A program made the position numbers and the translations under genes. From contig JBJKQV010000178.1 of NCBI GenBank assembly GCA_046704985.1, positions 1 through 35,270 on the forward strand: a stretch of 35,270 nt of DNA, in the 5' to 3' direction. Under the pieces are notes generated by a model, which saw only the letters and a list, made by a program, of their open reading frames with translations, had not been told where the DNA came from and did no database searches. Position 1 is the first letter of the stretch, and every line of letters starts with the position of its first letter. This document shows, one piece after another, positions 2,410 to 35,270 of the stretch. Source of the stretch: Terriglobia bacterium. Lineage in GTDB: Bacteria > Acidobacteriota > Terriglobia > UBA7540.

Positions 2410-2518
2410 CCGAAGCTCCGGGAACCCCCGGGACGCGGAGAACGAACCGGAGCATTTGTCGGCCGGTAAGATTCGCCAGGTGGGGGTGTGGCAGACTCTC
2501 GCGAAAGAGGAGGCGACT

Positions 2519-3494: not shown

Positions 3495-3612
3495 TGGGGT
3501 GTCGTGCCAATCGTTCCTGGAAGAGGAGCCAAGAACCCGCGACGCGCAAGCCGGGCTTGAGCGGCTGGCGCCCGGGGAAATTCCCGCAGGCAGGAGGCCC
3601 GTCGAACCCCTG

Positions 3613-5406: not shown

Positions 5407-5566
5407 CGTCCGGAATTCCGATCGCGCGGAGCGGGAGAGGGGTCCGCTTGTCGGCGGGGCACTGAAGACCAAGCAGATTCCTCGGGTCGGTTATGTGCCT
5501 CGGTCCTCGGAATAACCGAAGCGGAGGTTCTTTCAGCGAGCCGCGAAGGGAGGGGGGCTACGATTC

Positions 5567-7345: not shown

Positions 7346-7409
7346 ACTGCCGGTCTGCTCCATGTGGGCAGGCTGCGTGCAATCCCCGGCTTAAGGAGGG
7401 AAACAACTC

Positions 7410-9026: not shown

Positions 9027-9052
9027 GCGGTCCCGAAAGGGCTTGTCGTGGG

Positions 9053-10216: not shown

Positions 10217-10493
10217 AGCGCGGGACACCTCGAGTTTGTGGCCGTCCGGCTTGCGCGCGTCACTCTGCTGACGGAGCCCGGTTTACTCAAACCATCATAA
10301 GGCAAGACACAGTGAAACTGAAGGCGTCCCCCGGCGGGGGGACGGTGGCGGCTGAAGGGCCGTCGCGGCACCGCAAGCGCCTTTATAGATTACCAATTTA
10401 ATGGTACGCTATTCAACTCGTTTTACTCGCCGGGAGGCACTTGGCCCCCCGGGGGCAGTGACCCCCGGCGAGGACCTGGAAGGGAGGCGGGGC

Positions 10494-12155: not shown

Positions 12156-12229
12156 CCCCTTGGCGCAGCATGACGGGGAAAGGCCGCGAGTGCTCAGGCG
12201 CGGCTTCAGGGAAATGGAGGCAGTGGAAA

Positions 12230-18151: not shown

Positions 18152-21100
18152 CTAGAACAAGAAGTGCAAGGACAACTGCATGAAGCGCGGGCTGCCGATG
18201 GTGTGTTGAATATACCCCAGGCTGCCGCGAGGGGGATTGGCAGGAGGCCCGTAGTAATCGGGGAAGAAGTTTACGTTATTGTTGGGCGTGTCAAAATTAG
18301 CCTGGTTAAAGAGGTTGAACGCATCGGCCTCAAAACGTAAACGATACCGCTCGGTGATGTTGAACTGCTTGGCCAGGCTCATATCGAAGCGCACCTGGAA
18401 AGGACCGCGGAACATGTTGCGACCCGTAGTGCCAAACAGGGATTCGTAAAGATCGCAGCCCGAGGCATCGCAAGGCGGCACGCCGTTCGTTCCGGGCGCG
18501 ACAAACTGCGGGGCAAAGGCCTGTGCATTGAGCACCGGCTGGCCCGCATTGACGCCGTGAGTACCTTGCAGTTGAGCCTGGGATGCGGTGACGCCCGATT
18601 TGAGCGGCACAATGGGGTTAGCCAGTTCGTCGTATGTACCGTAATACAAGCTGGCTACCGAACCATGGTAGTCGTAAGGGCTGTAGGGCTGGCCGCTCTG
18701 GGCAACGGTTTGCCCGCTGATCGTCCAGCCTTTGGTGGCGTCCTTGGCGAATCGGCTGCCCGAGAATCCCGGCAGGTTGTAACTGTAGTTGACCAGGAAG
18801 ACGTGCGTCTGGTCGAAGTCCGAGGAGGCGTAGTTGGACTTGGGATCCTGCGGGTTGTTGCCGGTGACGAACAATCCCAGCCCGCTCTGCATGTCGAGAG
18901 CGTGCGACCAGGTGTAGGAAGCGCTGAACTGCAGCCCGTGGGACATGCGTTTGTGCACCTGGAGCTGCAAGGCATCGTAGTTGGAGATGCCCTCGGCATT
19001 GTAGGTTACGGAGTTCATGTCATAGCCGATGTAGGGCACGCGAACCTCGGCGTTGCCGGCGTAGTACGGAGGCGGGCACAAAGGTTCATTGTCCAGCGGT
19101 GAAAGGCCGGAGTAATAGGTGTTGCATGGACTGTTGGGGCTCACGCCGCCGTAGGAATACATCTGTCCGTGCACGGGGTTCGAAGGGGTGGCGATGAGCG
19201 GCTCATTGAAGGGGATAGGCAGCACTTCGTGGACGCCGTGATTGCCTACGTAGCCGATCTCGAACATCCAGTTGTTGGAGGGCTGGAATTGCAGGTCGAG
19301 GGTCCAGCTTTCGGTGTAGGGCAGTTTGTTGTGGATGTTGTACCCGGAGAAGAGCAAGGGACCCGAGTGGTTGCCGGTTGGCCAGTGGCCCGACGCGGTC
19401 TGTGAAACGTTAGGCAACAGCGCAAGATAGCTGGCGGCGTTCCCGGAGGGTGGCGGCACCGAAGCTGTGCCGAAGGGGGCAGCAAAGTCTGACCCCCTAC
19501 TGGCATAAATCGGCTCGACGAAGGGCGGCGCCAGCGTCACCCCGAACGGGCCGTTGAAGCCGGAGCCCGCGGGGGCGGAAAAGTAGCTGAACAGTTCGCC
19601 GCGGTCGTAGTAGACGCCGTAGCCGGCGCGCACGGTCACCTTGGAAGTGGGCGACCAGGCAATGCCGATGCGCGGCGCCAGTCCCCACTGGTGCTGGGTC
19701 ATCAGCGACGCGCTGGCGCCCTGGGTGCCCGAGGTGGAATTGTTTCCGGCGATGACCAGACCGGCGTTGGTGATGGTGTCGGTCGTGGAGTTGTAGGAGT
19801 AAAGCGCGGGGTCGAATCCGGTCAGCCGGCCATACTTCTCTGAGAGCGGGCCATCATAATCCCATCGCAGGCCGGCGGTAATCGTCAGGTTGCTTCGAAC
19901 CTTAAAGTCATCGTTGATGTAGAGGCCCGCCGTGTTCGACCGGTAGTAGCGGTTCGCCGAGCCCGCGAACGCGTTGCCGGTATACACGTAGCCCTCCACG
20001 AAATCGAGAAGGCTGTGGAACTCCAGAATATCCGTGTTGGTGTTTTTGTTGATCACGTTAAGCTGGGTGTGGTCCCACAGCCCGCCAATCGAAATCGTGT
20101 GCCTGCCTTTCACCATATTCAAAGAGGATTCGATCTCCCCCCGATTCTGGTACATCCCGGCGTTGGCAAAGCTTGTGCTGGGACCAAATTCCAGAGTGTT
20201 ATAAATGGTCGGATCCATGCCGCTGATCTCGATCTGCGGAAACCCCGTGGAGCCCAGCAGATTCATTCCCATATCGCTGGGACCGAAAGCCTGACTGGTT
20301 TGCGAATAGGCGCGCAGACGCGTAAAGCCGATGCGCTGCTCCCAAGTCATGGTCGGGGATAGGATGAGGTTGTTGCTGATGGAGAGCACCTGACTGCCTG
20401 CCGAGAGCTCCTGCGGGAAACCGATGAGATCGCTGACGGCGCCGAAGGGGCCGGTGGTAGGATTGTTCTGGATATAATATTTTCCTGACAGACGGTCCCT
20501 GTCGCTCGCCTGATAGTCCAAGCTGGCGATTCCCTGGTTGACACTTGAGATCGTGTTGGGCCCGCGGAGGACGGCATCGTAGCCCAATTGGGTCGCGGTC
20601 GTCGAGTTAGTGATCTGCGCGCTGGGAATCAGATATTGACCGTCCGGAAGCTTGGCGTTGAAGAGTTTCATCGCTACCGGGCTGATGTCAGCGGCGGTAA
20701 TCGTCTTTCCGTAGTCGCTGTTCTGGATCATGCTGATAATGCCGGCGGCGCTGCGGTCGTCGGTCAGGCCCAGGGGCACGGTGACGTTCTTGGTCGAGAG
20801 AGACGCATCCGAAATCCGAACTCCCTGGTAGGACCCGAAGTAAAACAATTTGTTTTTGATGATCGGCCCGCCGATGGTGGCGCCGAACTGATTGCGGTTC
20901 ATGAAAGGATTTTTCAGGTTGTCCGCGTTGTAAAAGAACGGTGCGGCGTTCATGGAGCTGTTTTGCCATTGCTCCCAGGCCGACCCGTGAACCCGGTTGG
21001 TGCCGGACTTGGTGGTGACGCCAATATGCGCGCCACTCTTGTTGCCCTGACTGGCGTCATACATGGAGGAGTTGACGGTGATCTCCTGGATGGCGTCCGG

Positions 21101-21850
21101 CGGAGGCGTGGGCAGGGCCTGGCCGATGGCGCCGTAGACCGAAGTGGCGGATTGAAGCACTCCTCCTGCGCCGAAGTTCTCGCCGGTGTTCAGCACGAAG
21201 CGGTTCTCGCCCACCTGCGAGGTGGAGTTGCCGTTGAACTGGTTGTTGGTGCTGATGCCGTTCAGCGAAAAGCTGTTGCTGGTGTCGCGGTTGCCGTCGG
21301 CGAAGATGGCCTGATTCCCGAGGCCCGCGTTGGCGCCCGCGCCGCCCAGAAAATCCGCGTGTACGCCCGGGCTCATAATCGCCAGTTGGGTGAAACTCCC
21401 CGTGCCGAGGGGCGTCGATTGGATGGTGGCCTTCGAGACCACGTAACCGGTGGTGGCGTTGGTCTGGTTCATGAGCGGCGTAGCGTTTACGGTGATGCTG
21501 GTCGTGGCTTCACCGGGCGCCAGCTTGGCGTTCACGGTGGCGGTTCGGTTACTATCGACTTCGATGGCGGAATAGGTCTCCGCCTTGAACCCCGCCTTGG
21601 TGATGGTGACGCTGTAGGTCCCCGGAGGCACGCCGAAAAAGGCGTACGAGCCCCGTTGATTAGTCGTCGCCGTCATCTGCAAATTGGTATCCGAGTTGGT
21701 GGCTTTCACCTGCGCTCCCGGCACGACCGCGCCCGAGACGTCCTGCACCACGCCGGTGATGGACCCCTGGGTTTGTTGGCCGCGCACCTGGACGGCGCAC
21801 GCGAAGCTAAGAATCAACAGCGCGAGGAATAACTTGCTCCTCCGACACAT
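18152..21850 (-). CDS. TonB-dependent receptor with N-terminal carboxypeptidase-regulatory-like domain
   Basis: ATG 21850 is preceded by GGAGGG. The signal is MCRRSKLFLALLILSFACAVQVRG. The CarboxypepD_reg-like segment is GSITGVVQDVSGAVVPGAQVKATN...GTYSVTITKAGFK. A beta-barrel-type sequence of more than 1000 aa follows, rich in G/N/S/T/Y and ending in an aromatic residue (...SLHFLF). Confidence 0.9.
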   Translation of the reverse strand: MCRRSKLFLALLILSFACAVQVRGQQTQGSITGVVQDVSGAVVPGAQVKATNSDTNLQMTATTNQRGSYAFFGVPPGTYSVTITKAGFKAETYSAIEVDSNRTATVNAKLAPGEATTSITVNATPLMNQTNATTGYVVSKATIQSTPLGTGSFTQLAIMSPGVHADFLGGAGANAGLGNQAIFADGNRDTSNSFSLNGISTNNQFNGNSTSQVGENRFVLNTGENFGAGGVLQSATSVYGAIGQALPTPPPDAIQEITVNSSMYDASQGNKSGAHIGVTTKSGTNRVHGSAWEQWQNSSMNAAPFFYNADNLKNPFMNRNQFGATIGGPIIKNKLFYFGSYQGVRISDASLSTKNVTVPLGLTDDRSAAGIISMIQNSDYGKTITAADISPVAMKLFNAKLPDGQYLIPSAQITNSTTATQLGYDAVLRGPNTISSVNQGIASLDYQASDRDRLSGKYYIQNNPTTGPFGAVSDLIGFPQELSAGSQVLSISNNLILSPTMTWEQRIGFTRLRAYSQTSQAFGPSDMGMNLLGSTGFPQIEISGMDPTIYNTLEFGPSTSFANAGMYQNRGEIESSLNMVKGRHTISIGGLWDHTQLNVINKNTNTDILEFHSLLDFVEGYVYTGNAFAGSANRYYRSNTAGLYINDDFKVRSNLTITAGLRWDYDGPLSEKYGRLTGFDPALYSYNSTTDTITNAGLVIAGNNSTSGTQGASASLMTQHQWGLAPRIGIAWSPTSKVTVRAGYGVYYDRGELFSYFSAPAGSGFNGPFGVTLAPPFVEPIYASRGSDFAAPFGTASVPPPSGNAASYLALLPNVSQTASGHWPTGNHSGPLLFSGYNIHNKLPYTESWTLDLQFQPSNNWMFEIGYVGNHGVHEVLPIPFNEPLIATPSNPVHGQMYSYGGVSPNSPCNTYYSGLSPLDNEPLCPPPYYAGNAEVRVPYIGYDMNSVTYNAEGISNYDALQLQVHKRMSHGLQFSASYTWSHALDMQSGLGLFVTGNNPQDPKSNYASSDFDQTHVFLVNYSYNLPGFSGSRFAKDATKGWTISGQTVAQSGQPYSPYDYHGSVASLYYGTYDELANPIVPLKSGVTASQAQLQGTHGVNAGQPVLNAQAFAPQFVAPGTNGVPPCDASGCDLYESLFGTTGRNMFRGPFQVRFDMSLAKQFNITERYRLRFEADAFNLFNQANFDTPNNNVNFFPDYYGPPANPPRGSLGYIQHTIGSPRFMQLSLHFLF

Positions 21851-22535
21851 GATTCCCTCCATATGAAGGTCGCGGAGCGACCATGAATTGAGCTCTCCGG
21901 GGCAGCCGTCGTCGGCCTCCGCCGGGGTGATATGACTCTTGCGGTGGGGAAAATCCCTGGATGTTTGGACTCTGGTCCCAAACTGCCATGAAGGATGAGC
22001 CTTGAAAAGGAAGGATCAGCCTCTCGGTGCGGCGCTCATGTGGAGGCTATCCTTCGGCACAGCTTTCCGGTGCAAGAACTCCCTTTGTCGCACCGGCGTA
22101 TTAAGCCTTCTTTACAACCGTGTTGATCGCCCGTTAAGTTCTCGCTTCCCGGGCCGGGAACCTCCGGCGCGGCGCCTCACGGCTGCGCCCTCGGGCGGGA
22201 GCGCAATCGCGGGGGTGCTGAAGGGACTCCACCCTTGGGGACACCGGAGGAAATGACCATCACCCTCGGGTTTTCGTCCCGGGTCTTAAGTCTTGTGCAC
22301 CCGACGCAGGTTTTTGCTGTGCTTGCCTTGCGGTGGAAACAATAACGCCGTACCCGGGACAAGTCAAGTGGGAGCGCGGAGTCCCTCGCACATTCCGCCT
22401 GCCGGGCCAGGAGGCGGCCGCGCGGGCATTCACCCTCTTGTGCCCGCCCTACATTCGGCGTACTCTTTGCGCAGCCGGGGACGGTCTGTTTCCCGGCTGG
22501 GCCGACGTCCCCATCTTGCCTTAAGGAGATCAGGA

Positions 22536-23960: not shown

Positions 23961-25841
23961 TTATTGCGCGTCGTTGCCGCGGGGCAGGCCGGGGTAGTCC
24001 GGCTCGTTGTGCCCCAGGGCGCGGTTGAGGTTGAACGCCGCGCTGATGAGTCCCAGGTGGGTGAAAGCCTGGGGAAAGTTGCCCAGCGCCTCGCCGCACG
24101 CTCCCGTCTCCTCGGCGTAGAGGCCCAGGTGGTTGGCGTAGCCGTGCATCTTCTCGAAGATCAGGCGCGCCTCTTCGAGCCTTCGGCGGTCCACCCGCCC
24201 GGCGCGCGTCAGCGCCTCGACCAGCCAGAACGTGCACATGTTGAACGTGCCCTCGGTTCCCGACAGCCCGTCGGCCGATTCCTGCAGGTTGTAGCGGTGG
24301 ACCAGGCTATCGGCCATCAGCCCTCCCTGGGTTTGTGGGAGGTTGATGGCGTCGAGGGTGGCGAGCATGCGCGGGTCGGTGGGCGACATGAAAAAGACCA
24401 GGGGCATGATGAGCGCCGCAGCGTCGAGCGACCGGCTGCCGTAGTACTGCACGAACGCCTGGCGCCGGCGGCTCCAGCCCTGGCTGAGGATCTGCTCGTA
24501 GATCTGGTCGCGCGCCTCCAGCCAACGCGCGCGGTCGGCGGGAAAGCTGCGCTTATCGGCCAGGCGCAGCCCGCGGTCCAGCGCCACCCAGCACATGAGC
24601 TTGGAGTAAACGAACTGCCGCGGCCCGCCGCGCACTTCCCAGATGCCGCAGTCCTCCCTCTGCCAGTTGTCCGCCACCCAGTTGAGCAGCCGCCGCAGGT
24701 CGCGCCAGAGCTGGTAGGAGATGGGGCTGCCGTATTTGTTGTACAGATACACGGAGTCCATGAGCGCGCCGTAAATATCCAGTTGCAGTTGCCGATAAGC
24801 GGCGTTGCCCACGCGCACGGGGCGCGAGTCCCGGTAGCCGCCCAGGTGGTTGAGGGTCTGCTCTTCGATCTCGTGCCGGCCGTCGATGCCGTACATGGTC
24901 TGCAGCGACCCGTCGGGGTTCAGCTCGTGGCAGCGCGCTTCCAGCCACTGCATGAACTTGGAGGCTTCCTCGGTGAAGCCGATGCGCAGCAGGCCGTAGA
25001 GCGTGAAAGCGGCGTCGCGAATCCACGTGTAGCGGTAATCCCAGTTGCGCTCGCCCCCCAGGCTCTCGGGCAGGCTGCAGGTGGGCGCGGCAACGATGGC
25101 GCCGGTGGGCTCGAAGGTGAGCAGCTTCAGCACCAGCGCCGAGCGCCGCACCATCTCGCGCCAGCGCCCCTTGTAGGAGCACTTGCTCATCCAGCGCCGC
25201 CAGTAGCCCACCGTGGCCGAGAACATCTCGTGCACCTCGCGCTCGCTGAGCGCGCGGGCACAGACACCTTGGGTGGGCAGGTTCTCAAGCCGGAAGGATA
25301 TCGACTGGCCTTCCTGCAGGGTGAATTCTGCTGCCACGCCTCCTTTGCCGTCGGCCTCGAGCGCCTGGCGCGTCGCCAGGCTCAGGCTCTGCCGCTCGGA
25401 GCGGAAGCAGGCGCCCTCTCCCGGGCGGATTTCCAACTTGTGCGGGTCGCGCGCAAAATTGAACGCCGGCCGGCACTCGACGCGGAAGGGAAAAGTTCCG
25501 CGCACAGCCGCCACCCGTCGCACCAGCTGCGGCTGCTTCTTGGCCGACGGCCCGCTCCGAATGGGCATAAAGTCCGTTATCTCCCCCACCCCTTGCGTAG
25601 AGAGAAAGCGCGTCAGTAGCACGTTGGTGTCCGGCCAGTAAAATTGCTGGTGTTTCGCGCCTTCGATGGCCGGGGCGATCTGGAAGTGCCCGCCGCGCTC
25701 GGCATCGAGCAGGGAGGCAAAAACGCTGGGCGAGTCGAAATGGGGAAAGCAGAGCCAGTCGACCGTGCCGTCCATGCCCACCAGGGCCGCGGTGTGCAGG
25801 TCGCCGATAATGCCGTGATTTTCGATGGGCTGCTGGCTCAT
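23961..25841 (-). CDS. Glycoside hydrolase family 15 protein (glucoamylase/trehalase-like)
   Basis: The N-terminus [41 protein letters not shown] is the characteristic start of bacterial GH15 proteins. The later (alpha/alpha)6-type region contains [15 protein letters not shown] and [28 protein letters not shown] 25841 is preceded by GGAG. Confidence 0.9.
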
Positions 25842-25938
25842 GCCGTTCGTCTCCTGAGATTCAAGTGAAGGGTCATTATAGGCGCTTTGGGCTCGCGGTG
25901 AAACCCGGTTGCGGGCGATGGATCGCCCCGGGGATGGG

Positions 25939-25966
25939 TTGACATTTCCACCCGGGGCGGTAGAAT
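25939..25966 (+). promoter_or_regulatory. Candidate sigma70-type promoter of the tetR-led operon
   Basis: TTGACA (25939-25944), a 16-nt spacer and TAGAAT (25961-25966). It lies about 90 nt upstream of the TetR start codon, in the divergent GH15/TetR intergenic region. Confidence 0.5.
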
Positions 25967-25970
25967 GAAC

Positions 25971-25986
25971 TCGAACGGACGTTCGA
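25971..25986 (+). promoter_or_regulatory. Perfect 7-2-7 palindrome TCGAACG-GA-CGTTCGA, candidate TetR operator
   Basis: The inverted repeat starts 5 nt after the -10 hexamer, at or near the transcription start. This is the classic position for an autoregulatory TetR-family operator. Confidence 0.5.
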
Positions 25987-26055
25987 TTGAAGGCAGGGCA
26001 GCCGGTCTCCGGACGGCAACCACATCCCAGGCAGGGCGGCGGGGAGAGCCGCTTC

Positions 26056-26733
26056 ATGGCCAACCGCAACTCGCACCATTTCGACCGCAAGCTGGAGGCG
26101 ATCCTTTGCCGCGCGGCGGAGGTCTTTTGCGCGCGCGGCTACCATCAGGCCTCCATGCGCGACATCGCGCGCTCGACGCGCGTCAGCCTGGCGGGTCTCT
26201 ACTACTACTTCTCCAGCAAAGAGCAGCTTCTCTACCTCATCCAGCGCCACGCCTTCCAGACCCTGCTCGCCGAGGCGCGCCAGGAGCTTCGCACCCTCGC
26301 CGACCCCGAGCAGCGCCTGCGCGCTTTCATCCGCCTGCACTTGAAATTTTTCATCGAGCACCCCAACGAGATGAAGGTGCTCACCCACGAAGACCGTTCT
26401 CTGGGCGAGGAGTGGCGGCGCGAGGTTCACGCCCTCAAGAAAGACTATTACCGCCTGGGCTACCGATTGGTAGAGGCGCTCGCGGCGCGCCAGCGAATCG
26501 AGGATCTGAACCCGCGCCTGGCGGTGCTGGCGCTTTTCGGCATGATGAACTGGATTTACACCTGGTACAACTCGCAGGTGGACCCCGGCGCGCCGGAGAT
26601 GGCGCGCCGGATGGCGGACTGGTTTTTGCGCGGCATTTTGGGGCGGAGCAGCCGCCGGGCGGGCCGCCCGCGGCCGCCGCGGTCTCGGGCCGTGGCGCCT
26701 CGCGCCAAGCGCCCCGCGCGGCGCACGATTTGA
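26056..26733 (+). CDS. TetR-family transcriptional regulator with Arg-rich C-terminal tail
   Basis: The HTH region is [42 protein letters not shown] 26056 is preceded by GGGGAG. The C-terminal tail is [28 protein letters not shown]. Confidence 0.85.
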
Positions 26734-26756: not shown

Positions 26757-27566
26757 ATGGCAACCACCACCACCTCGGCGACGGGAGCATTAATCAATTA
26801 TCGCGCGGAAGGCGGTTTGGCGTGGATCGAGATGAACGATCCCCCCGCCAACACCTACACCTACGAAATGATGCAGCAGCTCGACGCCGCGGTCCTCCAG
26901 GCGCGCATGGACGACGCCGTGCAGGTGCTCATCCTGTGCGGGGCGGGCGAGAAGTTCTTCTCGGCGGGCGCCAACATCAACATGCTCGCCAGCGTCACTC
27001 CGGAATTCAAATACTATTTCTGCCTGCACGCCAACGAGACCCTGATGCGCCTGGAGCAGACGCCCAAGCTGGTGATCGCGGCGCTCAACGGCCACACGGT
27101 GGGCGGAGGGCTGGAGATTGCCCTGGCGGCGGACATCCGCCTGGCGCGCCGCGACGCGGGCAAGATCGGCCTGCCGGAAGTTTCACTCGGCGTGCTGCCC
27201 GGCACCGGCGGCACGCAGCGCCTCTCGCGCCTGATCGGCAAGTCGCGCTCCATCGAGCTGATGGTCACCGGCCGCACCTTCTCTTTTGAGGAAGCCGAGG
27301 AGATCGGCCTGGTCAATCAAGTGCTCAGCCGCGACGGATTCCTTGAGGAAGTGGCGGCCTACTCGCGGCAGTTCCTTCCGCCCGCCAAGGCCGCGCGCGC
27401 CGTGGGGCGCATCAAGCGCGCCGTCTGCTCGGGCATGGAAGTGCCCCTGGGCGAAGGCCTGGCCATCGAGCGCGAGCTCCAGCAACACCTCTTCCAGAGT
27501 CAGGACGCCAAGGAGGGGTTGCGCGCCTACATCGAGAAGCGCAAGCCGAACTTCCAGGCCAAGTAG
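26757..27566 (+). CDS. Enoyl-CoA hydratase/isomerase (crotonase) family protein 1
   Basis: ATG 26757 is preceded by GGGAGGAG. The crotonase oxyanion-hole contexts are KFFSAGANI and NGHTVGGGLEIALAADIR. The end ...EGLRAYIEKRKPNFQ is typical of the family. Confidence 0.9.
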   Translation: MATTTTSATGALINYRAEGGLAWIEMNDPPANTYTYEMMQQLDAAVLQARMDDAVQVLILCGAGEKFFSAGANINMLASVTPEFKYYFCLHANETLMRLEQTPKLVIAALNGHTVGGGLEIALAADIRLARRDAGKIGLPEVSLGVLPGTGGTQRLSRLIGKSRSIELMVTGRTFSFEEAEEIGLVNQVLSRDGFLEEVAAYSRQFLPPAKAARAVGRIKRAVCSGMEVPLGEGLAIERELQQHLFQSQDAKEGLRAYIEKRKPNFQAK

Positions 27567-27669: not shown

Positions 27670-28404
27670 ATGAAGATTGCCGTCTCGGTCGCCGATAAGG
27701 AAAAGAAGCGCGGGGCGAAGTCGCCCTATTTCCAGGCGCTGGTGGAAGCGGGGGCGCGTCCGCAGGAGTTGGTGTTGTTCGCCGCTGCCGACCGCTCGCG
27801 CGCCGCGCGCGCCGAGCTCGACGGCGTGCTCTTTGCGGGCGGCGAGGACGTGGACCCGGCCTTCTACGACGAGAAAAAGAAATATGACAGCGTGAAGGTG
27901 AACCGCGCCCGCGACGAATTCGAGATGGCGCTGCTCGACCGCGCGCTCGAGGAGCGGTTGCCCATCCTGGGCATCTGCCGCGGCTCGCAGATGATCAACG
28001 TCAAGTTCGGCGGGGCCCTCTACCAGGACGTGCAGCGCGACGAGGCCACTACCCTCGAGCATCGCCGCGAGAAAGAGCGCCGCGAGCGCGTGCACCAGGT
28101 GGCGGTGACGGAGCCCGAGTCGCTGCTGGGAAGCGCCGTCTCCGGCGGCTGCCGCGTCAACAGCCTGCACCACCAGGCCATCAAGCGCGTGGGCCGCGGC
28201 CTGAAGGTCACCGCCTACTCCGAAGACGGGCTGGTGGAAGCCTTCGAGGACGGCGGCGAGTATCCTTTCTTGATGGCCGTGCAGTGGCACCCGGAGGAGA
28301 TCGTCGAGCAGCCCGAGCAGAAGAGGATTTTCGAGCAGTTCCTGGCCAAGTGCCGGGAAGCCGAAGCGCGCCGGACGGCGCGGGAGGTTTCTGATGCCGG
28401 ATGA
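27670..28404 (+). CDS. Class I glutamine amidotransferase-like / peptidase C26 (gamma-glutamyl amide hydrolase, PuuD-like)
   Basis: GVLFAGGEDVDP is present. The nucleophile elbow is PILGICRGSQMIN. NSLHHQAI is present. The His context is AVQWHPEE. ATG 27670 is the start; the upstream part of ORF 27286 overlaps the crotonase gene. Confidence 0.85.
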   Translation: MKIAVSVADKEKKRGAKSPYFQALVEAGARPQELVLFAAADRSRAARAELDGVLFAGGEDVDPAFYDEKKKYDSVKVNRARDEFEMALLDRALEERLPILGICRGSQMINVKFGGALYQDVQRDEATTLEHRREKERRERVHQVAVTEPESLLGSAVSGGCRVNSLHHQAIKRVGRGLKVTAYSEDGLVEAFEDGGEYPFLMAVQWHPEEIVEQPEQKRIFEQFLAKCREAEARRTAREVSDAG

Positions 28405-29185
28405 GCCCGTTTTGCTGGCGCGGCAGGGAGCGGTGGCGACCCTCACCCTCAATCGCCCCGAGAAGCTCAACGCCCTGGATGAGCCCATGCGCCGGGTACT
28501 CGACGCCGCGCTCGATCAGGTGGCCCACGAGCCGGCGATTCGGGTGGTGGTGATTACCGGCGCCGGCCGCGCCTTCTGCTCGGGCGGCGACGTGGAGGCC
28601 ATGCAGGAGCTCAAGACGCAGTTCCACTCCGTGAGCTTTCGCGGCTTCCTGGAGCTCGGGCACGAACTGGTGCAGAAGCTGCGCAGCCTGCCCAAGCCCG
28701 TGCTGGCTTCGGTGAACGGCCCGGCGCTGGGGGCGGGCATGAACCTGGCGCTGGCCTGCGACCTGCGCATCGCTTCCGACCGCGCCACCTTTGCGCAGGC
28801 GTTTGTCCGCCTGGGCCTGCACCCCGACTGGGGCGGTACCTACTTTCTGCCGCGCGTGGTGGGCGTGGGGCGGGCGATGGAGATGTTTTTTCTCGGCGAG
28901 GCGGTGGAAGCCGCGGAGGCGCACCGCCTGGGCCTGGTGAATTTCCTCGCCGTCCACGAGCGCCTGGCGGAAGAGACGCGCGGCCTGGCCGAGCGCCTGG
29001 CGGAAGCGCCGCCCTTGCCCCTCGCCTTGCTCAAGCAGTCGCTCTACGAGCGCGAGGAGACGGAGCTGGCGCGGGTGATGCGCCACGAAGTTGACGCGCA
29101 GATGAAGTGCTTTGAGTCGCAGGATTTCACCGAGGGTTTGCGCGCTTTCCTGGAAAAGCGCAAGGCTGTCTTCAAAGGGGCTTGA
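28394..29185 (+). CDS. Enoyl-CoA hydratase/isomerase (crotonase) family protein 2
   Basis: Motifs are LTLNRPEKLNAL, GAGRAFCSGGDV, NGPALGAGMNLALACDLR and EGLRAFLEKRKAVF. ATG 28394 overlaps the previous gene's stop (28402-28404) by 11 nt, which suggests translational coupling. Confidence 0.9.
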   Translation: MPDEPVLLARQGAVATLTLNRPEKLNALDEPMRRVLDAALDQVAHEPAIRVVVITGAGRAFCSGGDVEAMQELKTQFHSVSFRGFLELGHELVQKLRSLPKPVLASVNGPALGAGMNLALACDLRIASDRATFAQAFVRLGLHPDWGGTYFLPRVVGVGRAMEMFFLGEAVEAAEAHRLGLVNFLAVHERLAEETRGLAERLAEAPPLPLALLKQSLYEREETELARVMRHEVDAQMKCFESQDFTEGLRAFLEKRKAVFKGA

Positions 29186-29309: not shown

Positions 29310-30446
29310 ATGCTGAAACTTTCCAACTTCGACGACTGGATCGACTATTTCTACAGCTGGCAGAAGGACATCGGCCTCGACGCGCCGGAGTTCCTCGATT
29401 ACCGCTTCGAGGCCAAGTACGACTCGGTGCCGCCGGAAATCTCCTTCGGCGATTACCGCGGGCAGCTGCGCTGGAAGACGGTGATGCACATTCCCGACCA
29501 GCGCATCCGCGACGCCGTGCAGAACCTGGTGGTCTACCAGGGCGACACGGAATTCGCCTCCGTCGAGCAGCAGCGCCGGCTGTTCGAGACCGCCCCCAGC
29601 CGCTACGATTACCTGAGCCTGGTGCGGGTGATGACCGAGGAGATGCGCCACGGCTGGCAGATGAGCCACGTGCTGATCAGCCAGTTCGGGCGCTCGGGAC
29701 GCATCGAGGCGCAAAAGCTCCTGGAGCGCCGCGCCTTCTCCGACCAGCGCCTGCTCGGCGCCTTCAACCAACCCGTCAACGACTGGCTGGATTTCTTTAC
29801 CTACACCCAGTTTGTGGACCGCGACGGCAAGTTCCAGCTCACTATGCTCTCGCACTCCGCTTTCCTGCCCGTCGCCGAGAGCATGCCGCCCATGCTCAAG
29901 GAAGAGTCCTTCCACCTGGGCACCGGCAACAACGGCCTGGCGCGCGTCCTCAAGGCGCGGCGCATCCCCGTTTCCATCATCCAGAAGTACTTCAACAAGT
30001 GGCTGCCCACTTCCTACGACCTGTTCGGCACCGACCACTCCTCTTCCGCGCAGTGGGCCTACGTGTGGGGCCTCAAGGGGCGCTACGACGAGCGGAATTC
30101 GCCCGGCGGGGCGGACCGCGAAAACCTCAACGACCTGGCGCGCGAGCTCTACTACCAGGAAGTTTGCAAGCTTACCGAGACACTCAACAAGCTCATCCCC
30201 GACGATGAGCCGAAGATCCAGGTGCCCAGCCTGAAGTTCCACCGCCAGATCGGCGCCTACGCCGACCGGTACTACAACCTGCGCGGCGAAGAGATGACGC
30301 GCGCCGAGTTCGAGGCCTACCTGCCCACCGTCCTGCCTTCGCAGGAAGACGAGAGCCGGCTGCGGGATATTTTCAAGGAGGGCGGCTGGATCGTTCCCAA
30401 GGGCGAGAAGGAATTCGAGCCCTCCGAAGGAGCGCGCAAGAGGTGA
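29310..30446 (+). CDS. BoxB-like diiron oxygenase (benzoyl-CoA 2,3-epoxidase component B family), compact 378-aa form
   Basis: ATG 29310 is preceded by GGAGAG. The protein is collinear, from memory, with BoxB: YQGDTEFASVEQQRRL, TEEMRHGWQ (ExxH), FVDRDGKFQL, KEESFHLGTG (ExxH), IQKYFNKW, GLKGRYDE and KFHRQIGAYAD. The upstream part of ORF 29112 overlaps the crotonase gene and is P/G/R-rich. Confidence 0.75.
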   Translation: MLKLSNFDDWIDYFYSWQKDIGLDAPEFLDYRFEAKYDSVPPEISFGDYRGQLRWKTVMHIPDQRIRDAVQNLVVYQGDTEFASVEQQRRLFETAPSRYDYLSLVRVMTEEMRHGWQMSHVLISQFGRSGRIEAQKLLERRAFSDQRLLGAFNQPVNDWLDFFTYTQFVDRDGKFQLTMLSHSAFLPVAESMPPMLKEESFHLGTGNNGLARVLKARRIPVSIIQKYFNKWLPTSYDLFGTDHSSSAQWAYVWGLKGRYDERNSPGGADRENLNDLARELYYQEVCKLTETLNKLIPDDEPKIQVPSLKFHRQIGAYADRYYNLRGEEMTRAEFEAYLPTVLPSQEDESRLRDIFKEGGWIVPKGEKEFEPSEGARKR

Positions 30447-30460
30447 GGGAGGACGGCGCC

Positions 30461-31234
30461 ATGCCGCCTGAAAACACATCGCGGGTGGAATCGCAGAAGC
30501 AGGGCGCGGTCGCGCGGCTGACGCTCAACCGCCCGCCCCTCAACGTCCTCGACCTCGCCGGGCTGCGCGAGCTGCACGCGGCGGTCCAGGCGGCCGCGGC
30601 CGACCCCGCCGTGCGCCTGCTGGAGCTGCGCGGCGCGGGCGAAAAGGCCTTCTGCGCGGGCATGGAAGTGCGCGACCACTTTCCCGAGCGCGCGCCGGAG
30701 ATGTTGCGCGCTTTCCACGCCGCGGTGCGCGCCTTGCTCGACGCGCCTTGCCCCACCGTGGCGGTGGTGCAGGGCCACTGCCTGGGGGGCGGCATGGAAC
30801 TGGCCATGGCCTGCGACTTCATCCTGGCGGCGCGCGGCGCGCGCTTCGGCCAGCCGGAAATCAAGCTCGCCGCCTTTCCGCCCGTCGCCGCGGCGCTGCT
30901 GCCCTCGCTGATCGGCGAAAAGAAAGCGCTGGAGATGATCCTGACGGGCGACCCGGTGAGCGCGCAAGAGGCCGAGCGCTTGGGCTTGGTCAACCGCGTG
31001 GCGGATGATTTGCCCGGCGAAGCGGAGAAATTTTCGCAGAGCCTCCTGGCCTCGAGCCCGCGGGCCGCGGCGCTGGCGCGCCGCGCAACCCATCGGCCCT
31101 CGCGCCAAGCCTTCGAGAACGCTTTGCGCGAGGCGGAGCGCATTTATGTGGACGAGCTGCTGGCGAGCGAGGACGCCCGCGAAGGTTTGGAGGCGTTTCT
31201 CGCCAAGCGCCCGCCGGTTTGGAAGGGTAAGTAA
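30461..31234 (+). CDS. Enoyl-CoA hydratase family protein 3, dienoyl-CoA hydratase (Dch/BamR)-like subgroup (tentative)
   Basis: ATG 30461 is preceded by GAGGGAGGA. Motifs are LTLNRPPLNVL, GEKAFCAGMEV and QGHCLGGGMELAMACDF. GQPEIKLAAFPPVAAALLP and ERIYVDELLASEDAREGLEAFLAKRPPVW resemble my recollection of cyclohexa-1,5-dienecarbonyl-CoA hydratases. Confidence 0.85.
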   Translation: MPPENTSRVESQKQGAVARLTLNRPPLNVLDLAGLRELHAAVQAAAADPAVRLLELRGAGEKAFCAGMEVRDHFPERAPEMLRAFHAAVRALLDAPCPTVAVVQGHCLGGGMELAMACDFILAARGARFGQPEIKLAAFPPVAAALLPSLIGEKKALEMILTGDPVSAQEAERLGLVNRVADDLPGEAEKFSQSLLASSPRAAALARRATHRPSRQAFENALREAERIYVDELLASEDAREGLEAFLAKRPPVWKGK

Positions 31235-31261
31235 TCTTGCATATTTTCTTAAAGGAGCGAA

Positions 31262-31585
31262 ATGGACGAAACGCCGGAACTGGACCCGCAAATCTTGCAA
31301 GACCTCATGGCGCGCGGCGAAAAGTTGTTTCTGCTCGACTGCCGCGAGCCCTGGGAGCACAAGGTGGCGCGCATCGAGGGCGCGGAGCTGATTCCCATGC
31401 GCGAGATCGCCGCCAAGGTGGAGAAGATTCCGCGCGACTGCCAGGTGGTGGTCTATTGCCATCACGGCCAGCGCAGCCTGGCGGTGGCGCTCTGGATGCG
31501 CCAGGCGGGCTTCGAGGCGCTCAGCTTGAACGGCGGCATCGACCGCTGGTCCACGGAGATTGACGAAGCCGTGCCGCGTTACTGA
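31262..31585 (+). CDS. Single-domain rhodanese (sulfurtransferase)
   Basis: ATG 31262 is preceded by AAAGGAG. Motifs are LLDCREPWEH and the active-site loop VVYCHHGQRS. The 107-aa size is typical. Confidence 0.85.
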   Translation: MDETPELDPQILQDLMARGEKLFLLDCREPWEHKVARIEGAELIPMREIAAKVEKIPRDCQVVVYCHHGQRSLAVALWMRQAGFEALSLNGGIDRWSTEIDEAVPRY

Positions 31586-31611
31586 GCGGCGGGCCGCGGA
31601 GAGGAGCCCGG

Positions 31612-32112
31612 GTGAACAAAATCATGCTGCGATTGCGCGTCAACGGACGCGCTTACGAGACCGAGGCCGCACCCAACGAGCTGCTGCTCGACGTGCTGCG
31701 CACGCGCCTGGGCCTGACCGGCTCCAAGCGCGGGTGCGACGACGCGAGCTGCGGCGCCTGCACGGTGCTGGTGGACGGCCGGCCCCAGATGTCGTGCCTG
31801 ATGCTCGCCGTCTCCTACCAGGACGCCGAGATCACCACCATCGAGGGCGTGGCGGCTCCCGACGAGCTTCACCCGCTGCAGCTCGCCTTCATGCAGGAAG
31901 GCGGCGCGCAGTGCGGCTACTGCACGCCGGGAATGATTATGACCGCCAAGCATCTGCTCGACAGCAACCCCGAGCCCAGCGAGCAGGAGATTGACCAGGC
32001 GCTTTCCGGCAACCTCTGCCGCTGCACCGGCTACACGCAGATTCGCGCTTCCGTGCGCCGCGCCATCGAGCTGCTGCGCGAGCGCAAACCGCAGGAGGTG
32101 GCGAAACCATGA
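31612..32112 (+). CDS. Molybdenum hydroxylase small subunit, two [2Fe-2S] clusters (HcrC/CoxS-like)
   Basis: GTG 31612 is preceded by GGAGAGGAG. The plant-type cluster motif is GCDDASCGACTV...C. The second cluster motif is QCGYCTPG...NLCRCTGY. Confidence 0.9.
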   Translation: MNKIMLRLRVNGRAYETEAAPNELLLDVLRTRLGLTGSKRGCDDASCGACTVLVDGRPQMSCLMLAVSYQDAEITTIEGVAAPDELHPLQLAFMQEGGAQCGYCTPGMIMTAKHLLDSNPEPSEQEIDQALSGNLCRCTGYTQIRASVRRAIELLRERKPQEVAKP

Positions 32113-34409
32113 GCGCCCCGGTTCATTCCTCGCCCATCGGCGCGCGCGTTCCCATGCTCGACGCCCGCGAAAAGGTCACGGGCGCCGGCAAGTACGCCGC
32201 CGACCTCACCCTGCCCGGCATGCTGGTGGGCAAGGTCCTCCACAGCCCGCACGCCCACGCGCGCATCGTTTCCATCGATACCTCCGCCGCCGAAGCGCTG
32301 CCGGGCGTTCACGCCGTGGTCACCGGGCGCGAGACGCCCGTCAAGTACGGCATCCTGCCCATCGGCCACGACGAAACCGTTTTCGCTCCCCACAAGGTGC
32401 GCTACATCGGCGACAACGTGGCGGGCGTGGCGGCGGAATCGGAAGCCCTGGCCGAGGAGGCCTTGCGGCTCATTCGCGTCGAGTACGAAGTTCTGCCCGC
32501 GGTCTTTGACCCGGAAGAGTCCATGCGCGCCGAGGGCGAGCTGATTCAGGAAGGCCGCGCGCACAACATCGAGAAGGAATATCACCACCAGTTCGGGGAC
32601 GTGGAGAAAGGTTTCGAGGAGGCCGACTACGTCCGCGAGGACCGCTTCGACTGCGCGGAGGTGACGCACGCGGCCATGGAGCCGCACGCGACGCTGGCGC
32701 AGTTTGCGCCCGACGGCAAGCTCACCGTCTGGTCGTCCACGCAGGTGCCTTATTACCTGATGAAGACGCTGGCCGCCACGTTGCAAATTCCCGAAGACGA
32801 CGTGCGCGTCATCAAGCCGCTGGTGGGCGGCGGATTCGGCGGCAAGAGTGAGGTGATTCCGCTGGAGCCGGCGGCGGCGGTGCTGGCGCGCAAGGCCGGG
32901 CGGCCGGTGCGGATTACCTACACGCGCGAAGAAGTTTTTCTGATGCACCGCGGGCGCCCGCGCACGATTGTGGAACTGCGCACCGGCGTCGGGCGCGACG
33001 GGCGCCTGAAGGCCGTGGCGGCGCGCATCGTGATGGACGGCGGCGCTTACTGCGGCTACGGCCCGGTCACCATCCTCTATTCCGGGGCGCTGCTCAACGC
33101 CATGTACGACATCCCGCACGTGCGCTTTGACGGCTACCGCGTGCTGACCAACAAGCCTGCCTGCGGAGCCATGCGCGGCCACGGGACGGTCGACGCGCGC
33201 TTCGCTTTCGAGGTGCAGCTCGACCGCATCGCCGCCACCCTGGGGATGGACCCGGCCGAAATCCGCCGGCGGAATTTTCTGCGCCCACCTTGCGTGACCG
33301 TGAACGGCCTGCGCGTGCTCAGCTACGGCTATCCGGAGTGCGTCGAGCGCGCCGTCGAGCAGTCGGGCTGGGCGCGCAAACGCGGCAAGCTGCCCTACGG
33401 CAAGGGCATCGGCCTGGCGGGGAGCCACTACGTGAGCGGCGCCGCCAATTCCATCATCCGCGGCGACATGCCGCACACCACCATCAATTTGGAAATCGAC
33501 GCCGAAGGCCAGGTGACGCTCTATACGGGCGCTTCGGAAATCGGCCAGGGCTCCGACACCGTGCAGGCGCAGCTGGCGGCCGGGGAACTGGGCCTGCGCG
33601 CCGAGCAGGTGCGCCTGGTCGCCGCCGATACCGGGCGCACGCCCGTCGACCTGGGCAGCTACTCGAGCCGCGTTACCTTCATGGCCGGCAACGCCACGCT
33701 CCAGGCGGCGCGGCAGGCGCGCGAAAAATTGCTGGCCGCCGCGGCCGCGGAATTCGACACGACGCCGGAAAACCTGGAGATGTCGCAGGGCCGAATCGTT
33801 TGCCGCGACGACCCGCGCCGCAAGATGAGCCTGGGCCAGGCGGTGCGCCTGGCGGCGCCGGAGGGCTTGCTGAAGAGTGTTGGCACTTACGCGCCGCCGC
33901 AGGCCGCGCGCGGCGGCAAGTTCAAAGGCGCGGGCGTGGGGCCCTCGCCCGCCTACAGCTACAGCGCCCAAGTGGCTGAGGTGACGGTGGACACGGAAAC
34001 CGGCGAGGTGCGCGTGGAGCGCATCGTCGCCGCGCACGACTGCGGCAAGGCCCTCAACCCCCTGACCGTGGAAGGTCAGGTGGAAGGCTCGGTGTGGATG
34101 GGGCTGGGTCAGGCCATGCAGGAAGAGATGACGTGGCGCCAGGGCCGGCTGATGAATCCCGGCTTGCTCGAGTACCGCTCCGCCTCGACGCTCGAGTCGC
34201 CGCCCATCGAGCCCATTCTGGTGGAGAGTCACGATCCGGAAGGCCCCCTGGGCGCCAAGGAGGCGGGCGAAGGGTCACTCGCCGCCACCTTGCCCGCCGT
34301 CGCCAACGCCGTCTACGACGCGGTGGGAGTCTGGATAACCACACTGCCCATTACGCCCGAGAAGGTTTTGAAAGCACTGGAAGAGAAAAAGAAAGCGGAA
34401 CCCAGATGA
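32109..34409 (+). CDS. Molybdopterin-binding large subunit of a xanthine dehydrogenase-family enzyme (HcrA/CoxL-like)
   Basis: ATGA start/stop overlap with the small subunit. The a/b-hammerhead N-terminus is DAREKVTGAGKYAADL...HSPHAHARIVSID. GGGFGGK, MRGHG and a C-terminal GAKEAGEG are present. I saw no CODH-type VAYRCSFR loop. Confidence 0.9.
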   Translation: MSAPVHSSPIGARVPMLDAREKVTGAGKYAADLTLPGMLVGKVLHSPHAHARIVSIDTSAAEALPGVHAVVTGRETPVKYGILPIGHDETVFAPHKVRYIGDNVAGVAAESEALAEEALRLIRVEYEVLPAVFDPEESMRAEGELIQEGRAHNIEKEYHHQFGDVEKGFEEADYVREDRFDCAEVTHAAMEPHATLAQFAPDGKLTVWSSTQVPYYLMKTLAATLQIPEDDVRVIKPLVGGGFGGKSEVIPLEPAAAVLARKAGRPVRITYTREEVFLMHRGRPRTIVELRTGVGRDGRLKAVAARIVMDGGAYCGYGPVTILYSGALLNAMYDIPHVRFDGYRVLTNKPACGAMRGHGTVDARFAFEVQLDRIAATLGMDPAEIRRRNFLRPPCVTVNGLRVLSYGYPECVERAVEQSGWARKRGKLPYGKGIGLAGSHYVSGAANSIIRGDMPHTTINLEIDAEGQVTLYTGASEIGQGSDTVQAQLAAGELGLRAEQVRLVAADTGRTPVDLGSYSSRVTFMAGNATLQAARQAREKLLAAAAAEFDTTPENLEMSQGRIVCRDDPRRKMSLGQAVRLAAPEGLLKSVGTYAPPQAARGGKFKGAGVGPSPAYSYSAQVAEVTVDTETGEVRVERIVAAHDCGKALNPLTVEGQVEGSVWMGLGQAMQEEMTWRQGRLMNPGLLEYRSASTLESPPIEPILVESHDPEGPLGAKEAGEGSLAATLPAVANAVYDAVGVWITTLPITPEKVLKALEEKKKAEPR

Positions 34410-35270
34410 GTTTGCCGGCATTTGAAGTAGTGAGACCGAAGACGCTCGAGGCGGCGCTGGAAGCGTTGGCGCAGCACGGCCCGGCGGCGCAAGCCGTTGC
34501 GGGAGGCACCGATCTGATTCCCAGCATGAACCAGCGGCTCTTTGCGCCGCGCGTGCTGGTGGACCTGAAGCTCCTGCGCGAGCTCGACTACCTCCGCTAC
34601 GACGCCGGGCGCGGCCTGGAGATCGGCGCGCTCGCGACCATCACCTCGCTCGCCGAATCGCCGCTGCTCGCCGGGCATTTTCCGGTGCTGAGCGAGGCGG
34701 CGAAGACCATCGCCAGCCCGCTGCTGCGCAACATGGGCACGCTGGGCGGCAACCTCTGTCTCGACACGCGCTGTCTCTACTACAACCAGTCGGACTTCTG
34801 GCGCCAGTCGCTGGGTTACTGCCTGAAGAAAGACGGCACGGTCTGCCACGTGGCGCCGGGCGGCCAATTCTGCTGGGCGGTCTTTTCCGGCGACACGGCG
34901 CCGGCGCTGCTGACGCTGGGGGCGCGCGTGGAGCTGGCGGGGCCGCGCGGCCGGCGGGAGATTCCTCTTGAGGATTTCTACGTCAACGACGGCATCGTGC
35001 GCTTGAGCAAGGCCGCGGACGAATTGGTGACCGCGGTGCGCGTGCCCGCCTCGGCGGCGGACTGGCGGGGCGCTTATCGCAAGCTGCGCATTCGCCAGTC
35101 GATTGACTATCCGCTCGCCGGTGTGGCGGCGGCGATGCGTGTGGATTCGGGCGGCGTCTGCCTGGAAGCGCGCCTGGCGCTGACCGCCGTCAACCCCGCG
35201 CCGCGATTGGTCGCGGCGACCGAAAAATTGAGCGGCAAGACTTACGACCCGAAGCTCGTCGAGGAAGTGG
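34406..35270 (+). CDS. FAD-binding medium subunit of the molybdenum hydroxylase (HcrB/CoxM-like) with Cys-rich insert; 3' end outside window
   Basis: This ORF is not in the track because it has no stop in the window. ATG 34406 overlaps the large-subunit stop (ATGA). My translation is MSLPAFEVVRPKTLEAALEAL...AVAGGTDLIP...NMGTLGGNLCLDTRCLYYNQSDFWRQSLGYCLKKDGTVCHVAPGGQFCWAVFSGDTAPALL..., which is FAD_binding_5-type with an inserted Cys loop. Confidence 0.85.
   Translation, partial: MSLPAFEVVRPKTLEAALEALAQHGPAAQAVAGGTDLIPSMNQRLFAPRVLVDLKLLRELDYLRYDAGRGLEIGALATITSLAESPLLAGHFPVLSEAAKTIASPLLRNMGTLGGNLCLDTRCLYYNQSDFWRQSLGYCLKKDGTVCHVAPGGQFCWAVFSGDTAPALLTLGARVELAGPRGRREIPLEDFYVNDGIVRLSKAADELVTAVRVPASAADWRGAYRKLRIRQSIDYPLAGVAAAMRVDSGGVCLEARLALTAVNPAPRLVAATEKLSGKTYDPKLVEEV

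Follow-up and report, generated by a model that had tools for sequence, protein, structure and literature searches.

A compact BoxB-like protein of a Terriglobia bacterium, a putative aryl-CoA epoxidase that would work without BoxA

The DNA described here (the window: 35,270 nucleotides of contig JBJKQV010000178.1, assembly GCA_046704985.1 of a Terriglobia bacterium) carries, at positions 29310-30446 of the + strand, a compact homolog of BoxB, the iron enzyme of the O2-dependent ring opening of benzoate. The open reading frame (ORF), taken from the ORF list and the translation of the window, has 378 codons. Its ATG is preceded by GGAGA at a distance of about 10 nt, and the N-terminus, MLKLSNFDDW..., agrees with that of homologs of 379-385 amino acids (aa). 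An earlier note, made from the letters alone, had listed seven motifs collinear with BoxB, and all of them are present: QGDTEFASVEQQR at residues 77-89, TEEMRH at 109-114, DRDGKFQL at 170-177, KEESFHL at 197-203, QKYFN at 225-229, GLKGRYDE at 254-261 and KFHRQIG at 309-315.

Among the PDB sequences, phmmer places BoxB (3per_A) first, with E = 5.6e-52 over three collinear stretches, followed by a Sulfolobus protein (4mud_A, E 1e-13) and then by PaaA (~1e-4). The NCBIfam model of BoxB, TIGR03225, gives 214.8 bits (E = 2e-63) and its curated cutoff of 499.1 is not reached; neither is that of the PaaA model, TIGR02156 (36.6 bits, cutoff 280). The Pfam family PF05138 (PaaA_PaaC) is recognized over residues 65-249 with 48.1 bits, above the gathering threshold of 28.5. 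The alignment to BoxB and PaaA that the note had proposed thus bears out the collinearity with BoxB, which is the nearer of the two. The shortening by about 100 residues is also real: a canonical BoxB (P0160) has 475 aa, 97 more than the window protein, and 98 residues are deleted at the N-terminus, in internal segments and at the C-terminus (canonical positions 1-19, 49-72, 259-277, 324-328 plus 333-350, 445-451 and 467-472).

For the active site, the residue numbers of 3PER were transferred by pairwise alignment, with the ligand list of PMC5489048. The diiron ligands of BoxB are E120, E150, H153, D211, E240 and H243 (PMC5489048). All six are identical in the window protein (E81, E111, H114, D170, E199 and H202) and invariant in the 83 family members whose loci were inspected over about 10 kb around each homolog. 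The diiron motifs are intact, as the note had stated, and no loss of iron ligands is seen. The second shell that orients the ring in BoxB consists of Q116, T119, S123, F193, F203, F206 and T210, and S/A202 is also listed (PMC5489048). Five of the seven (Q116, T119, S123, F193 and F203, corresponding to Q77, T80, S84, F152 and F162) are kept in 83/83 members. Three pocket positions carry substitutions specific to the family: S/A202 is replaced by an aspartate (83/83), F206 by a tyrosine (82/83) and T210 by valine or isoleucine. In the window protein itself, these residues are D161, Y165 and V169.

A model of the protein was predicted with AlphaFold (AF2) from a diverse alignment and reached a pLDDT of 93.6 and a pTM of 0.91; an earlier model, made from 51 close homologs, was discarded (pLDDT 57.5). 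In the retained model, the ligands are predicted to lie on four long helices (64-94, 98-139, 159-180 and 186-216), as in a diiron bundle. The structural overlay proposed by the note was run with Foldseek against the PDB: BoxB chains (3pm5, 3per and 3q1g) came out on top, with TMq 0.86-0.87 and TMt 0.69-0.71, the latter being lower because 98 residues are missing. Far under BoxB stand 4mud (TMq 0.47) and PaaA (TMq ~0.5). The predicted fold is therefore that of a trimmed BoxB, including the C-terminal domain, and not a PaaA-like one. The invariant ligands, the confident model and the superposition on BoxB agree with the catalytic competence assumed in the note, and we infer that the protein is a functional soluble diiron oxygenase.

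The protein belongs to a distinct compact subfamily, separate from canonical BoxB. With TIGR03225, members of the family score 215-237 bits (226-237 for those other than the window protein), and two canonical controls reach 908.5 (P0160) and 672.2 (P0159). Identity to canonical BoxB is about 38% (36-41%), against 50-98% within the family, so that the subfamily postulated by the note is recovered. A word-indexed search gave 4776 relatives. The best 120 of these are 325-404 aa long (117 of them 365-404 aa), are 66-91% identical and stem from metagenome-assembled genomes (MAGs) of Terriglobia/Acidobacteriia, Binatia and Gemmatimonadales. Names attached to them include 'Phenylacetic acid catabolic protein' and, at JGI, 'benzoyl-CoA 2,3-epoxidase subunit B'.

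When each GTDB species was represented by one genome, at least 588 genomes were found to encode a relative. The best 80 of these carriers are all MAGs and are assigned to Acidobacteriota, Gemmatimonadota, Binatia, Methylomirabilota/Rokubacteria, Eisenbacteria and 'Deltaproteobacteria', as well as to Thermodesulfobacteriota, Armatimonadetes, Udaeobacter and Limnocylindrales. The note had counted a size normal for a large, already characterized BoxB subgroup as a point against its proposal. The first half applies, as proteins of this size are the rule in a large subgroup; the second does not, as literature searches found no study of the compact form. Nor did we find an NCBIfam equivalog model covering it or a solved structure of it among the PDB sequence matches. 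An exhaustive search of representatives revealed further, more distant compact clades. One of these (P0169) has lost most iron ligands (QADCH, ENVTS, NLCAK, QQHGEH), which recalls the non-catalytic subunit PaaC.

Two partners normally accompany BoxB: BoxA, its cognate reductase with two [4Fe-4S] clusters and an FNR-like domain, and BoxC, a 2,3-epoxybenzoyl-CoA dihydrolase of about 550 aa. With a verified BoxA query (717.6 bits to TIGR03224), tblastn found no match at E<=1e-3 in the 35-kb window or in the 83 related loci, in line with the note's statement that no BoxA gene lies nearby. Full-length BoxC was equally absent from the window and the 83 loci by tblastn. The BoxC query gave only weak, crotonase-level matches to ECH1, a crotonase encoded in the same cluster (35-40% over 100 aa, <=50 bits), which is the best-matching ECH for canonical BoxC. 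In comparison, a canonical locus (L084) has contiguous boxC-boxB-boxA genes, both partners being above their equivalog cutoffs. A BoxA gene directly downstream of the window, which would have told against the note, is not suggested by the syntenic regions beyond the window end: in L001, L002 and L168, these hold Macro and methyltransferase genes and no BoxA.

The compact gene is part of a longer cluster. From 26056 to the window end, all genes lie on the + strand and are separated by short gaps or joined by overlapping stop and start codons; the start of ECH3, for instance, overlaps the stop codon of the BoxB-like gene. A terminator scan gave no more sites than shuffled sequence and therefore speaks neither for nor against a single operon. 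The features are the following:

25939-25966, + strand: sigma-70-like promoter TTGACA-16-TAGAAT, 5' of the TetR gene (consensus scan 11/12, a pattern match only)
25971-25986, no strand: 16-bp palindrome TCGAACGGACGTTCGA, probable TetR operator (pattern scan across loci)
26056-26733, + strand: TetR-family regulator (TetR_N 52 bits, TetR_C_24 94 bits; start refined)
26757-27566, + strand: crotonase ECH1, 269 aa (ECH_1 189 bits)
27670-28404, + strand: Peptidase C26 / class-I glutamine amidotransferase-like hydrolase (Peptidase_C26 192 bits)
28394-29185, + strand: crotonase ECH2 (TIGR02280 PaaG 228 bits, cutoff 345; NF046063 oxepin_alt 216 bits, cutoff 300)
29310-30446, + strand: compact BoxB-like diiron oxygenase, 378 aa (TIGR03225, alignment to 3per_A, fold)
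30443-31234, + strand: crotonase ECH3 (best model TIGR03189, cyclohexa-1,5-dienecarbonyl-CoA hydratase, 175 bits, cutoff 292)
31262-31585, + strand: single-domain rhodanese (Rhodanese 60 bits; best NCBIfam match to MoeZ/MoeB C-terminal domains)
31612-32112, + strand: 4-hydroxybenzoyl-CoA reductase gamma-like subunit with two [2Fe-2S] clusters (Fer2_2 and Fer2; TIGR03193 192 bits, cutoff 258)
32109-34409, + strand: 4-hydroxybenzoyl-CoA reductase alpha-like Mo subunit (TIGR03194 996.1 bits, cutoff 994.55)
34406-35270, + strand: 4-hydroxybenzoyl-CoA reductase beta-like FAD subunit, cut by the window end (213 bits to 1rm6_B)

Between phyla, the ECH1 proteins of the related loci share 65-82% identity. 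ECH2 comes nearest to PaaG and the alternative oxepin-CoA hydrolase, with scores under both cutoffs. Conservation of the C26 gene is confined to the acidobacterial clusters (L001, L002, L004, L005 and L166-L168).

In the 83 related loci, ORFs were clustered and the clusters named by Pfam, and three types of neighborhood emerged. Type I (Gemmatimonadota, ~40 loci) has TetR, ECH1, aldehyde dehydrogenase, thiolase, ECH2 and the BoxB-like gene, followed by GDPD, 3-hydroxyacyl-CoA dehydrogenase, ECH in some loci, and amidohydrolase. Type II, to which the window belongs, is that of Acidobacteriota and has TetR, ECH1, aldehyde dehydrogenase or C26, UDG, ECH2 and the BoxB-like gene, then optionally ECH3 with an HcrCAB cassette, and finally Macro and methyltransferase genes. 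Type III (Binatia, Udaeobacter, Eisenbacteria and others; 14 loci) consists of the BoxB-like gene, a [2Fe-2S] ferredoxin and a NuoF-like gene, in otherwise unrelated surroundings. In most loci of types I and II, ECH2 is the gene immediately 5' of the BoxB-like one. The acidobacterial relatives have a UDG-family gene inside the cluster and Macro-domain and Methyltransf_28 genes just downstream of it; neither is found in the window.

Counted over the 83 loci, TetR is a neighbor in 46, ECH in 63, aldehyde dehydrogenase in 44, thiolase in 37 and 3-hydroxyacyl-CoA dehydrogenase in 37. In the 46 loci, the TetR gene is the same gene and heads the cluster. Aldehyde dehydrogenase, thiolase and 3-hydroxyacyl-CoA dehydrogenase represent enzyme classes known from the lower parts of the Box and Paa pathways (PMC4498308).

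The palindrome in the feature list lies directly after the sigma-70-like promoter, about 70 nt before the TetR start, and is shared widely. The pattern TCGAACG-NN-CGTTCGA is exact in 31/85 loci and occurs with at most two mismatches in 65 sources (64 loci and the window; 1.35 Mb), the chance expectation for the exact 14-base pattern over 1.35 Mb being far below 1. In types I and II, the TetR gene has it at its 5' end (e.g., L001, 6280-6295). Type III loci lack TetR, and all of them have the palindrome 37-46 nt before the BoxB-like gene (e.g., L026, 9958-9973); it also precedes this gene in 57/57 metagenome loci of adequate length. A second palindrome-like site in the window (27935-27950, two mismatches, inside the C26 gene) was treated as a chance match. 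The palindrome is probably the operator of the TetR protein and defines its regulon. One regulator-operator pair would thus join the BoxB-like/ferredoxin/NuoF operon and the TetR/crotonase cluster across phyla, which supports a single conserved function of the family. The operator and TetR also offer a handle to define the regulon and to find its inducer.

The type III loci form a sister clade, whose BoxB-like proteins share about 60% identity with that of the window and whose BoxB-like gene is always followed by the genes of a [2Fe-2S] ferredoxin and a NuoF-like flavoprotein. This triplet is present in L019, L026, L031, L038, L041, L043, L055, L057, L058, L060, L061, L066, L070 and L078 (n = 14), the two additional genes lying at about +1150 to +2750 relative to the start of the BoxB-like gene. 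The ferredoxin has 107 aa and is a thioredoxin-like [2Fe-2S] protein; the NuoF-like protein, of 419 aa, contains Complex1_51K (FMN) and NADH_4Fe-4S domains. The cysteine ligands of both are invariant. A scan of metagenome contigs with the NuoF-like alignment yielded 272 relatives, of which the best 80 loci (L086-L165) were inspected. In 57/57 of those with at least 1.7 kb upstream, the ferredoxin gene lies 327 nt and the BoxB-like gene ~1.5 kb upstream of the NuoF-like gene, and this NuoF-like clade is therefore dedicated to the oxygenase. A free-standing ferredoxin/NuoF pair that could serve type I or II organisms was not seen: in the best 80 of 272, only copies linked to the BoxB-like gene occur.

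The ferredoxin/NuoF-like pair is likely an alternative reductase in the sister clade. Judging from domain content and linkage, electrons would flow from NADH to FMN, then to the [4Fe-4S] cluster, the [2Fe-2S] cluster and, finally, the diiron center. The pair shares its thioredoxin-like [2Fe-2S], Complex1_51K FMN and NADH_4Fe-4S domains with the NADH-oxidizing NuoE/NuoF modules of complex I, and differs from them in that its two genes form a module tied to the gene of a diiron oxygenase. The BamGHI-like modules of class II benzoyl-CoA reductase, likewise NADH-oxidizing modules of the NuoE/NuoF type, would be akin to it as well. A NuoEF-type module reserved for a diiron oxygenase is not known to have been described before. 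The module is not in the window. The different electron donor proposed by the note is thus backed in part, by the absence of BoxA and by the tie of the sister clade to ferredoxin and NuoF; for the window's own clade, no donor was found.

Directly behind the BoxB-like gene, the window continues with ECH3, the rhodanese and the genes of a molybdenum enzyme. Its alpha subunit scores 765 bits to the Thauera 4-hydroxybenzoyl-CoA reductase (1rm6_A) and 307 to the next enzyme, and it passes the cutoff of TIGR03194. The beta subunit has a Cys-rich insertion (C..C....C....C....C) whose five conserved cysteines align to 1rm6_B. In that structure, the insertion presumably carries the extra [4Fe-4S] cluster peculiar to 4-hydroxybenzoyl-CoA reductase. 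Although the gamma subunit is under its cutoff and beta is cut by the window end, the enzyme looks like a genuine 4-hydroxybenzoyl-CoA reductase. The product of this reductase is benzoyl-CoA, the substrate of BoxB, and the enzyme is normally assigned to anaerobic metabolism. At 30443-35270, a complete-looking gene set of such an 'anaerobic' reductase stands in one transcription unit with the gene of an O2-dependent diiron oxygenase. The Hcr cassette adjoins the BoxB-like gene in 10/83 loci and in L168, and ECH3 travels with it; a universal linkage was rejected, the cassette being absent from L166 and L167. In bins of tundra Acidobacteria, hcrAB, dch and boxB have been reported without boxA (PMC4842900); that boxB may or may not be of the compact form.

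With a probability of roughly 0.58, the window protein is a BoxA-independent diiron aryl-CoA epoxidase acting in a hybrid, Box/Paa-like pathway. The enzyme would bind an aryl-CoA, most probably benzoyl-CoA, and use O2 and two electrons to epoxidize and dearomatize the ring. Benzoyl-CoA is the likeliest substrate because the residues binding the thioester and the ring are largely kept and because a benzoyl-CoA-producing reductase has repeatedly been inserted behind the gene. The compact family would have lost about 98 peripheral residues and would work without BoxA and without the 550-aa BoxC, its epoxide/oxepin product being handled by the co-regulated short crotonases ECH1 and ECH2. In the fuller clusters, aldehyde dehydrogenase, thiolase and 3-hydroxyacyl-CoA dehydrogenase would complete the degradation. 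The gene set would be controlled by a TetR repressor recognizing TCGAACG-NN-CGTTCGA. Electrons would come, in the sister clade, from the dedicated NADH-dependent NuoF-like flavoprotein and the thioredoxin-like [2Fe-2S] ferredoxin, and, in the window's clade, from a donor encoded elsewhere. The adjacent reductase would convert 4-hydroxybenzoyl-CoA to benzoyl-CoA and feed it to the oxygenase.

Several observations weigh against this epoxidase assignment. The three pocket changes run through the whole family, so that the substrate or the regiochemistry may differ from those of BoxB. No reductase candidate was seen for the window's own clade. Two loci that encode close relatives of the window protein (79-80% identity), L166 and L167, are without the Hcr cassette. 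Clustering of the 83 loci yielded no conserved CoA ligase, and the 35-kb window has no aldehyde dehydrogenase, thiolase or 3-hydroxyacyl-CoA dehydrogenase. Unrelated genes (UDG, Macro and C26) are interleaved in the acidobacterial clusters, and the gene contexts of the more distant compact clades P0129, P0161 and P0124 are uninformative.

The pocket changes lead to a serious rival, in which the chemistry is the same and the substrate is a substituted benzoyl-CoA (e.g., hydroxy- or aminobenzoyl-CoA) or another aryl-CoA, whose polar ring substituent would be bound by the aspartate and tyrosine of the pocket. D161 (83/83), Y165 (82/83) and V/I169 replace S/A202, F206 and T210 of BoxB, three positions that PMC5489048 counts among the benzoyl-orienting residues, and the clusters lack a benzoate-CoA ligase. 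On the other hand, 5/7 ring-orienting residues are unchanged, as is Q116, which hydrogen-bonds the thioester, and the neighboring 4-hydroxybenzoyl-CoA reductase yields unsubstituted benzoyl-CoA. A substituted substrate, or an altered regiochemistry, is considered rather unlikely, although it deserves to be taken seriously.

All other explanations are less likely still. An ordinary BoxB ortholog, with the genes of BoxA and BoxC located elsewhere in the genome, would fit the JGI label 'benzoyl-CoA 2,3-epoxidase subunit B' of many members, and the inspection covered about 10 kb on each side. The likeness to BoxB (Aromatoleum/Azoarcus evansii; PDB 3PER and 3PM5; TIGR03225) is indeed extensive: the same fold, including the BoxB-specific C-terminal part, the same six iron ligands, most of the ring-orienting residues and motifs collinear along the whole length. 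It is nevertheless improbable that the protein is a plain ortholog. A score of 215 bits under an equivalog cutoff of 499 contrasts with the 672-909 bits of true BoxB proteins, identity is only ~38%, five or six deletions remove 98 residues, and D161, Y165 and V169 set the pocket apart. BoxA is absent in 83/83 loci, whereas L084 has all three box genes together, BoxC genes are likewise lacking, and the operon of the sister clade has a different reductase module. The regulator is also another one: a TetR protein with its own operator here, and the XRE-type BoxR in the box cluster of Aromatoleum (PMC10803450).

For the missing donor of the window's clade, the adjacent molybdenum enzyme could be called upon, its FAD/[4Fe-4S] and [2Fe-2S] subunits delivering electrons to the diiron center instead of serving, or of serving only, as a separate dehydroxylase. 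Its cofactors (flavin, [4Fe-4S] and [2Fe-2S]) parallel those of the ferredoxin/NuoF-like module, and it follows immediately downstream in the same operon. Such a role is very improbable, as the cassette occurs in only 10/83 loci and is optional even among relatives 79-80% identical, and with an alpha subunit this close to the authentic enzyme of Thauera (765 bits), the usual function as a dehydroxylase is favored. Least probable of all, with hardly any weight, is a role in vivo other than epoxidation (an epoxide deoxygenase, an O2 scavenger, or, within a beta-oxidation-like cluster, a diiron protein whose substrate is a non-aromatic CoA ester). BoxB itself has been proposed to deoxygenate epoxides (PMC5489048), and some acidobacterial clusters have just two crotonases besides the BoxB-like gene, but no variation is seen at F152 and F162, which bind the aromatic group, or at Q77, which binds the thioester, and the full Gemmatimonadota clusters fit the enzyme set needed after ring epoxidation.

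Apart from BoxB, two other systems can be compared with the putative epoxidase. PaaA, the catalytic subunit of PaaABCE (PDB 3PW1 and 4IIT; TIGR02156), belongs to the same PF05138 and has the same diiron four-helix-bundle core, and the neighboring ECH2 resembles PaaG and the alternative oxepin-CoA hydrolase. The window protein differs from it by a score of only 37 bits (cutoff 280) and a TMq of ~0.5. Among the window cluster genes, no Pfam match to PaaB or to a second PaaA_PaaC protein was found, PaaD and PaaE not being searched specifically. SSO1313 of Sulfolobus (PDB 4MUD, 'ring oxidation complex / phenylacetic acid degradation-like protein'), the second-best PDB sequence match, has the core bundle in common, but, at a length of 235 aa, it is without the C-terminal domain (TMq 0.47) and, to judge from its entry name, is functionally uncharacterized as well.

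Tentatively, and at somewhat less than even odds, the family may represent a third kind of aryl-CoA epoxidase system beside PaaABCE and BoxAB. It would combine a stand-alone trimmed oxygenase, reduction by a NuoF-like flavoprotein and a ferredoxin (or by an equivalent encoded elsewhere), short crotonases in place of BoxC and a TetR operator kept from Acidobacteriota to Gemmatimonadota and Binatia. The acidobacterial fusion of the operon with 4-hydroxybenzoyl-CoA reductase would then provide an O2-dependent route that starts from 4-hydroxybenzoate and passes through benzoyl-CoA. KEGG- and JGI-style pipelines label the compact proteins boxB, and soil surveys then count a Box pathway; if the family has its own reductase, ring-opening enzymes and possibly substrate, such inferences need revising. 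With the gene in at least 588 species-level genomes, this may be a widespread route by which aromatic carbon is turned over in soil phyla that are abundant and mostly uncultured. If a NuoEF-type module does serve a diiron oxygenase, this would be a new kind of electron supply, and a naturally minimized BoxB reveals what the enzyme can do without.

The remainder of the window contains genes of other kinds. Its left end (7-3313, + strand) encodes a phosphoesterase, an HpcH/HpaI aldolase and a GntR/FCD regulator; these genes are ordinary ones, as are the receptor-like and GH15-like genes named below. Two paralogous pairs follow on the + strand, at 3499-5406 and 5567-7345 (65% identical) and at 7410-9026 and 10401-12155 (47% identical). 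All four genes (3499-12155) encode proteins of 540-635 aa with twin-arginine-like signal peptides and no Pfam domain, and a Kelch/NanM-like beta-propeller gene (12152-13480) lies 3' of them. A TonB-dependent-receptor-like outer-membrane protein with a CarboxypepD_reg domain is encoded at 18152-21862 (- strand); such proteins are typical of Acidobacteria. Finally, a GH15 glucoamylase/trehalase-like gene at 23961-26090 (- strand) is syntenic with L166 and L167.

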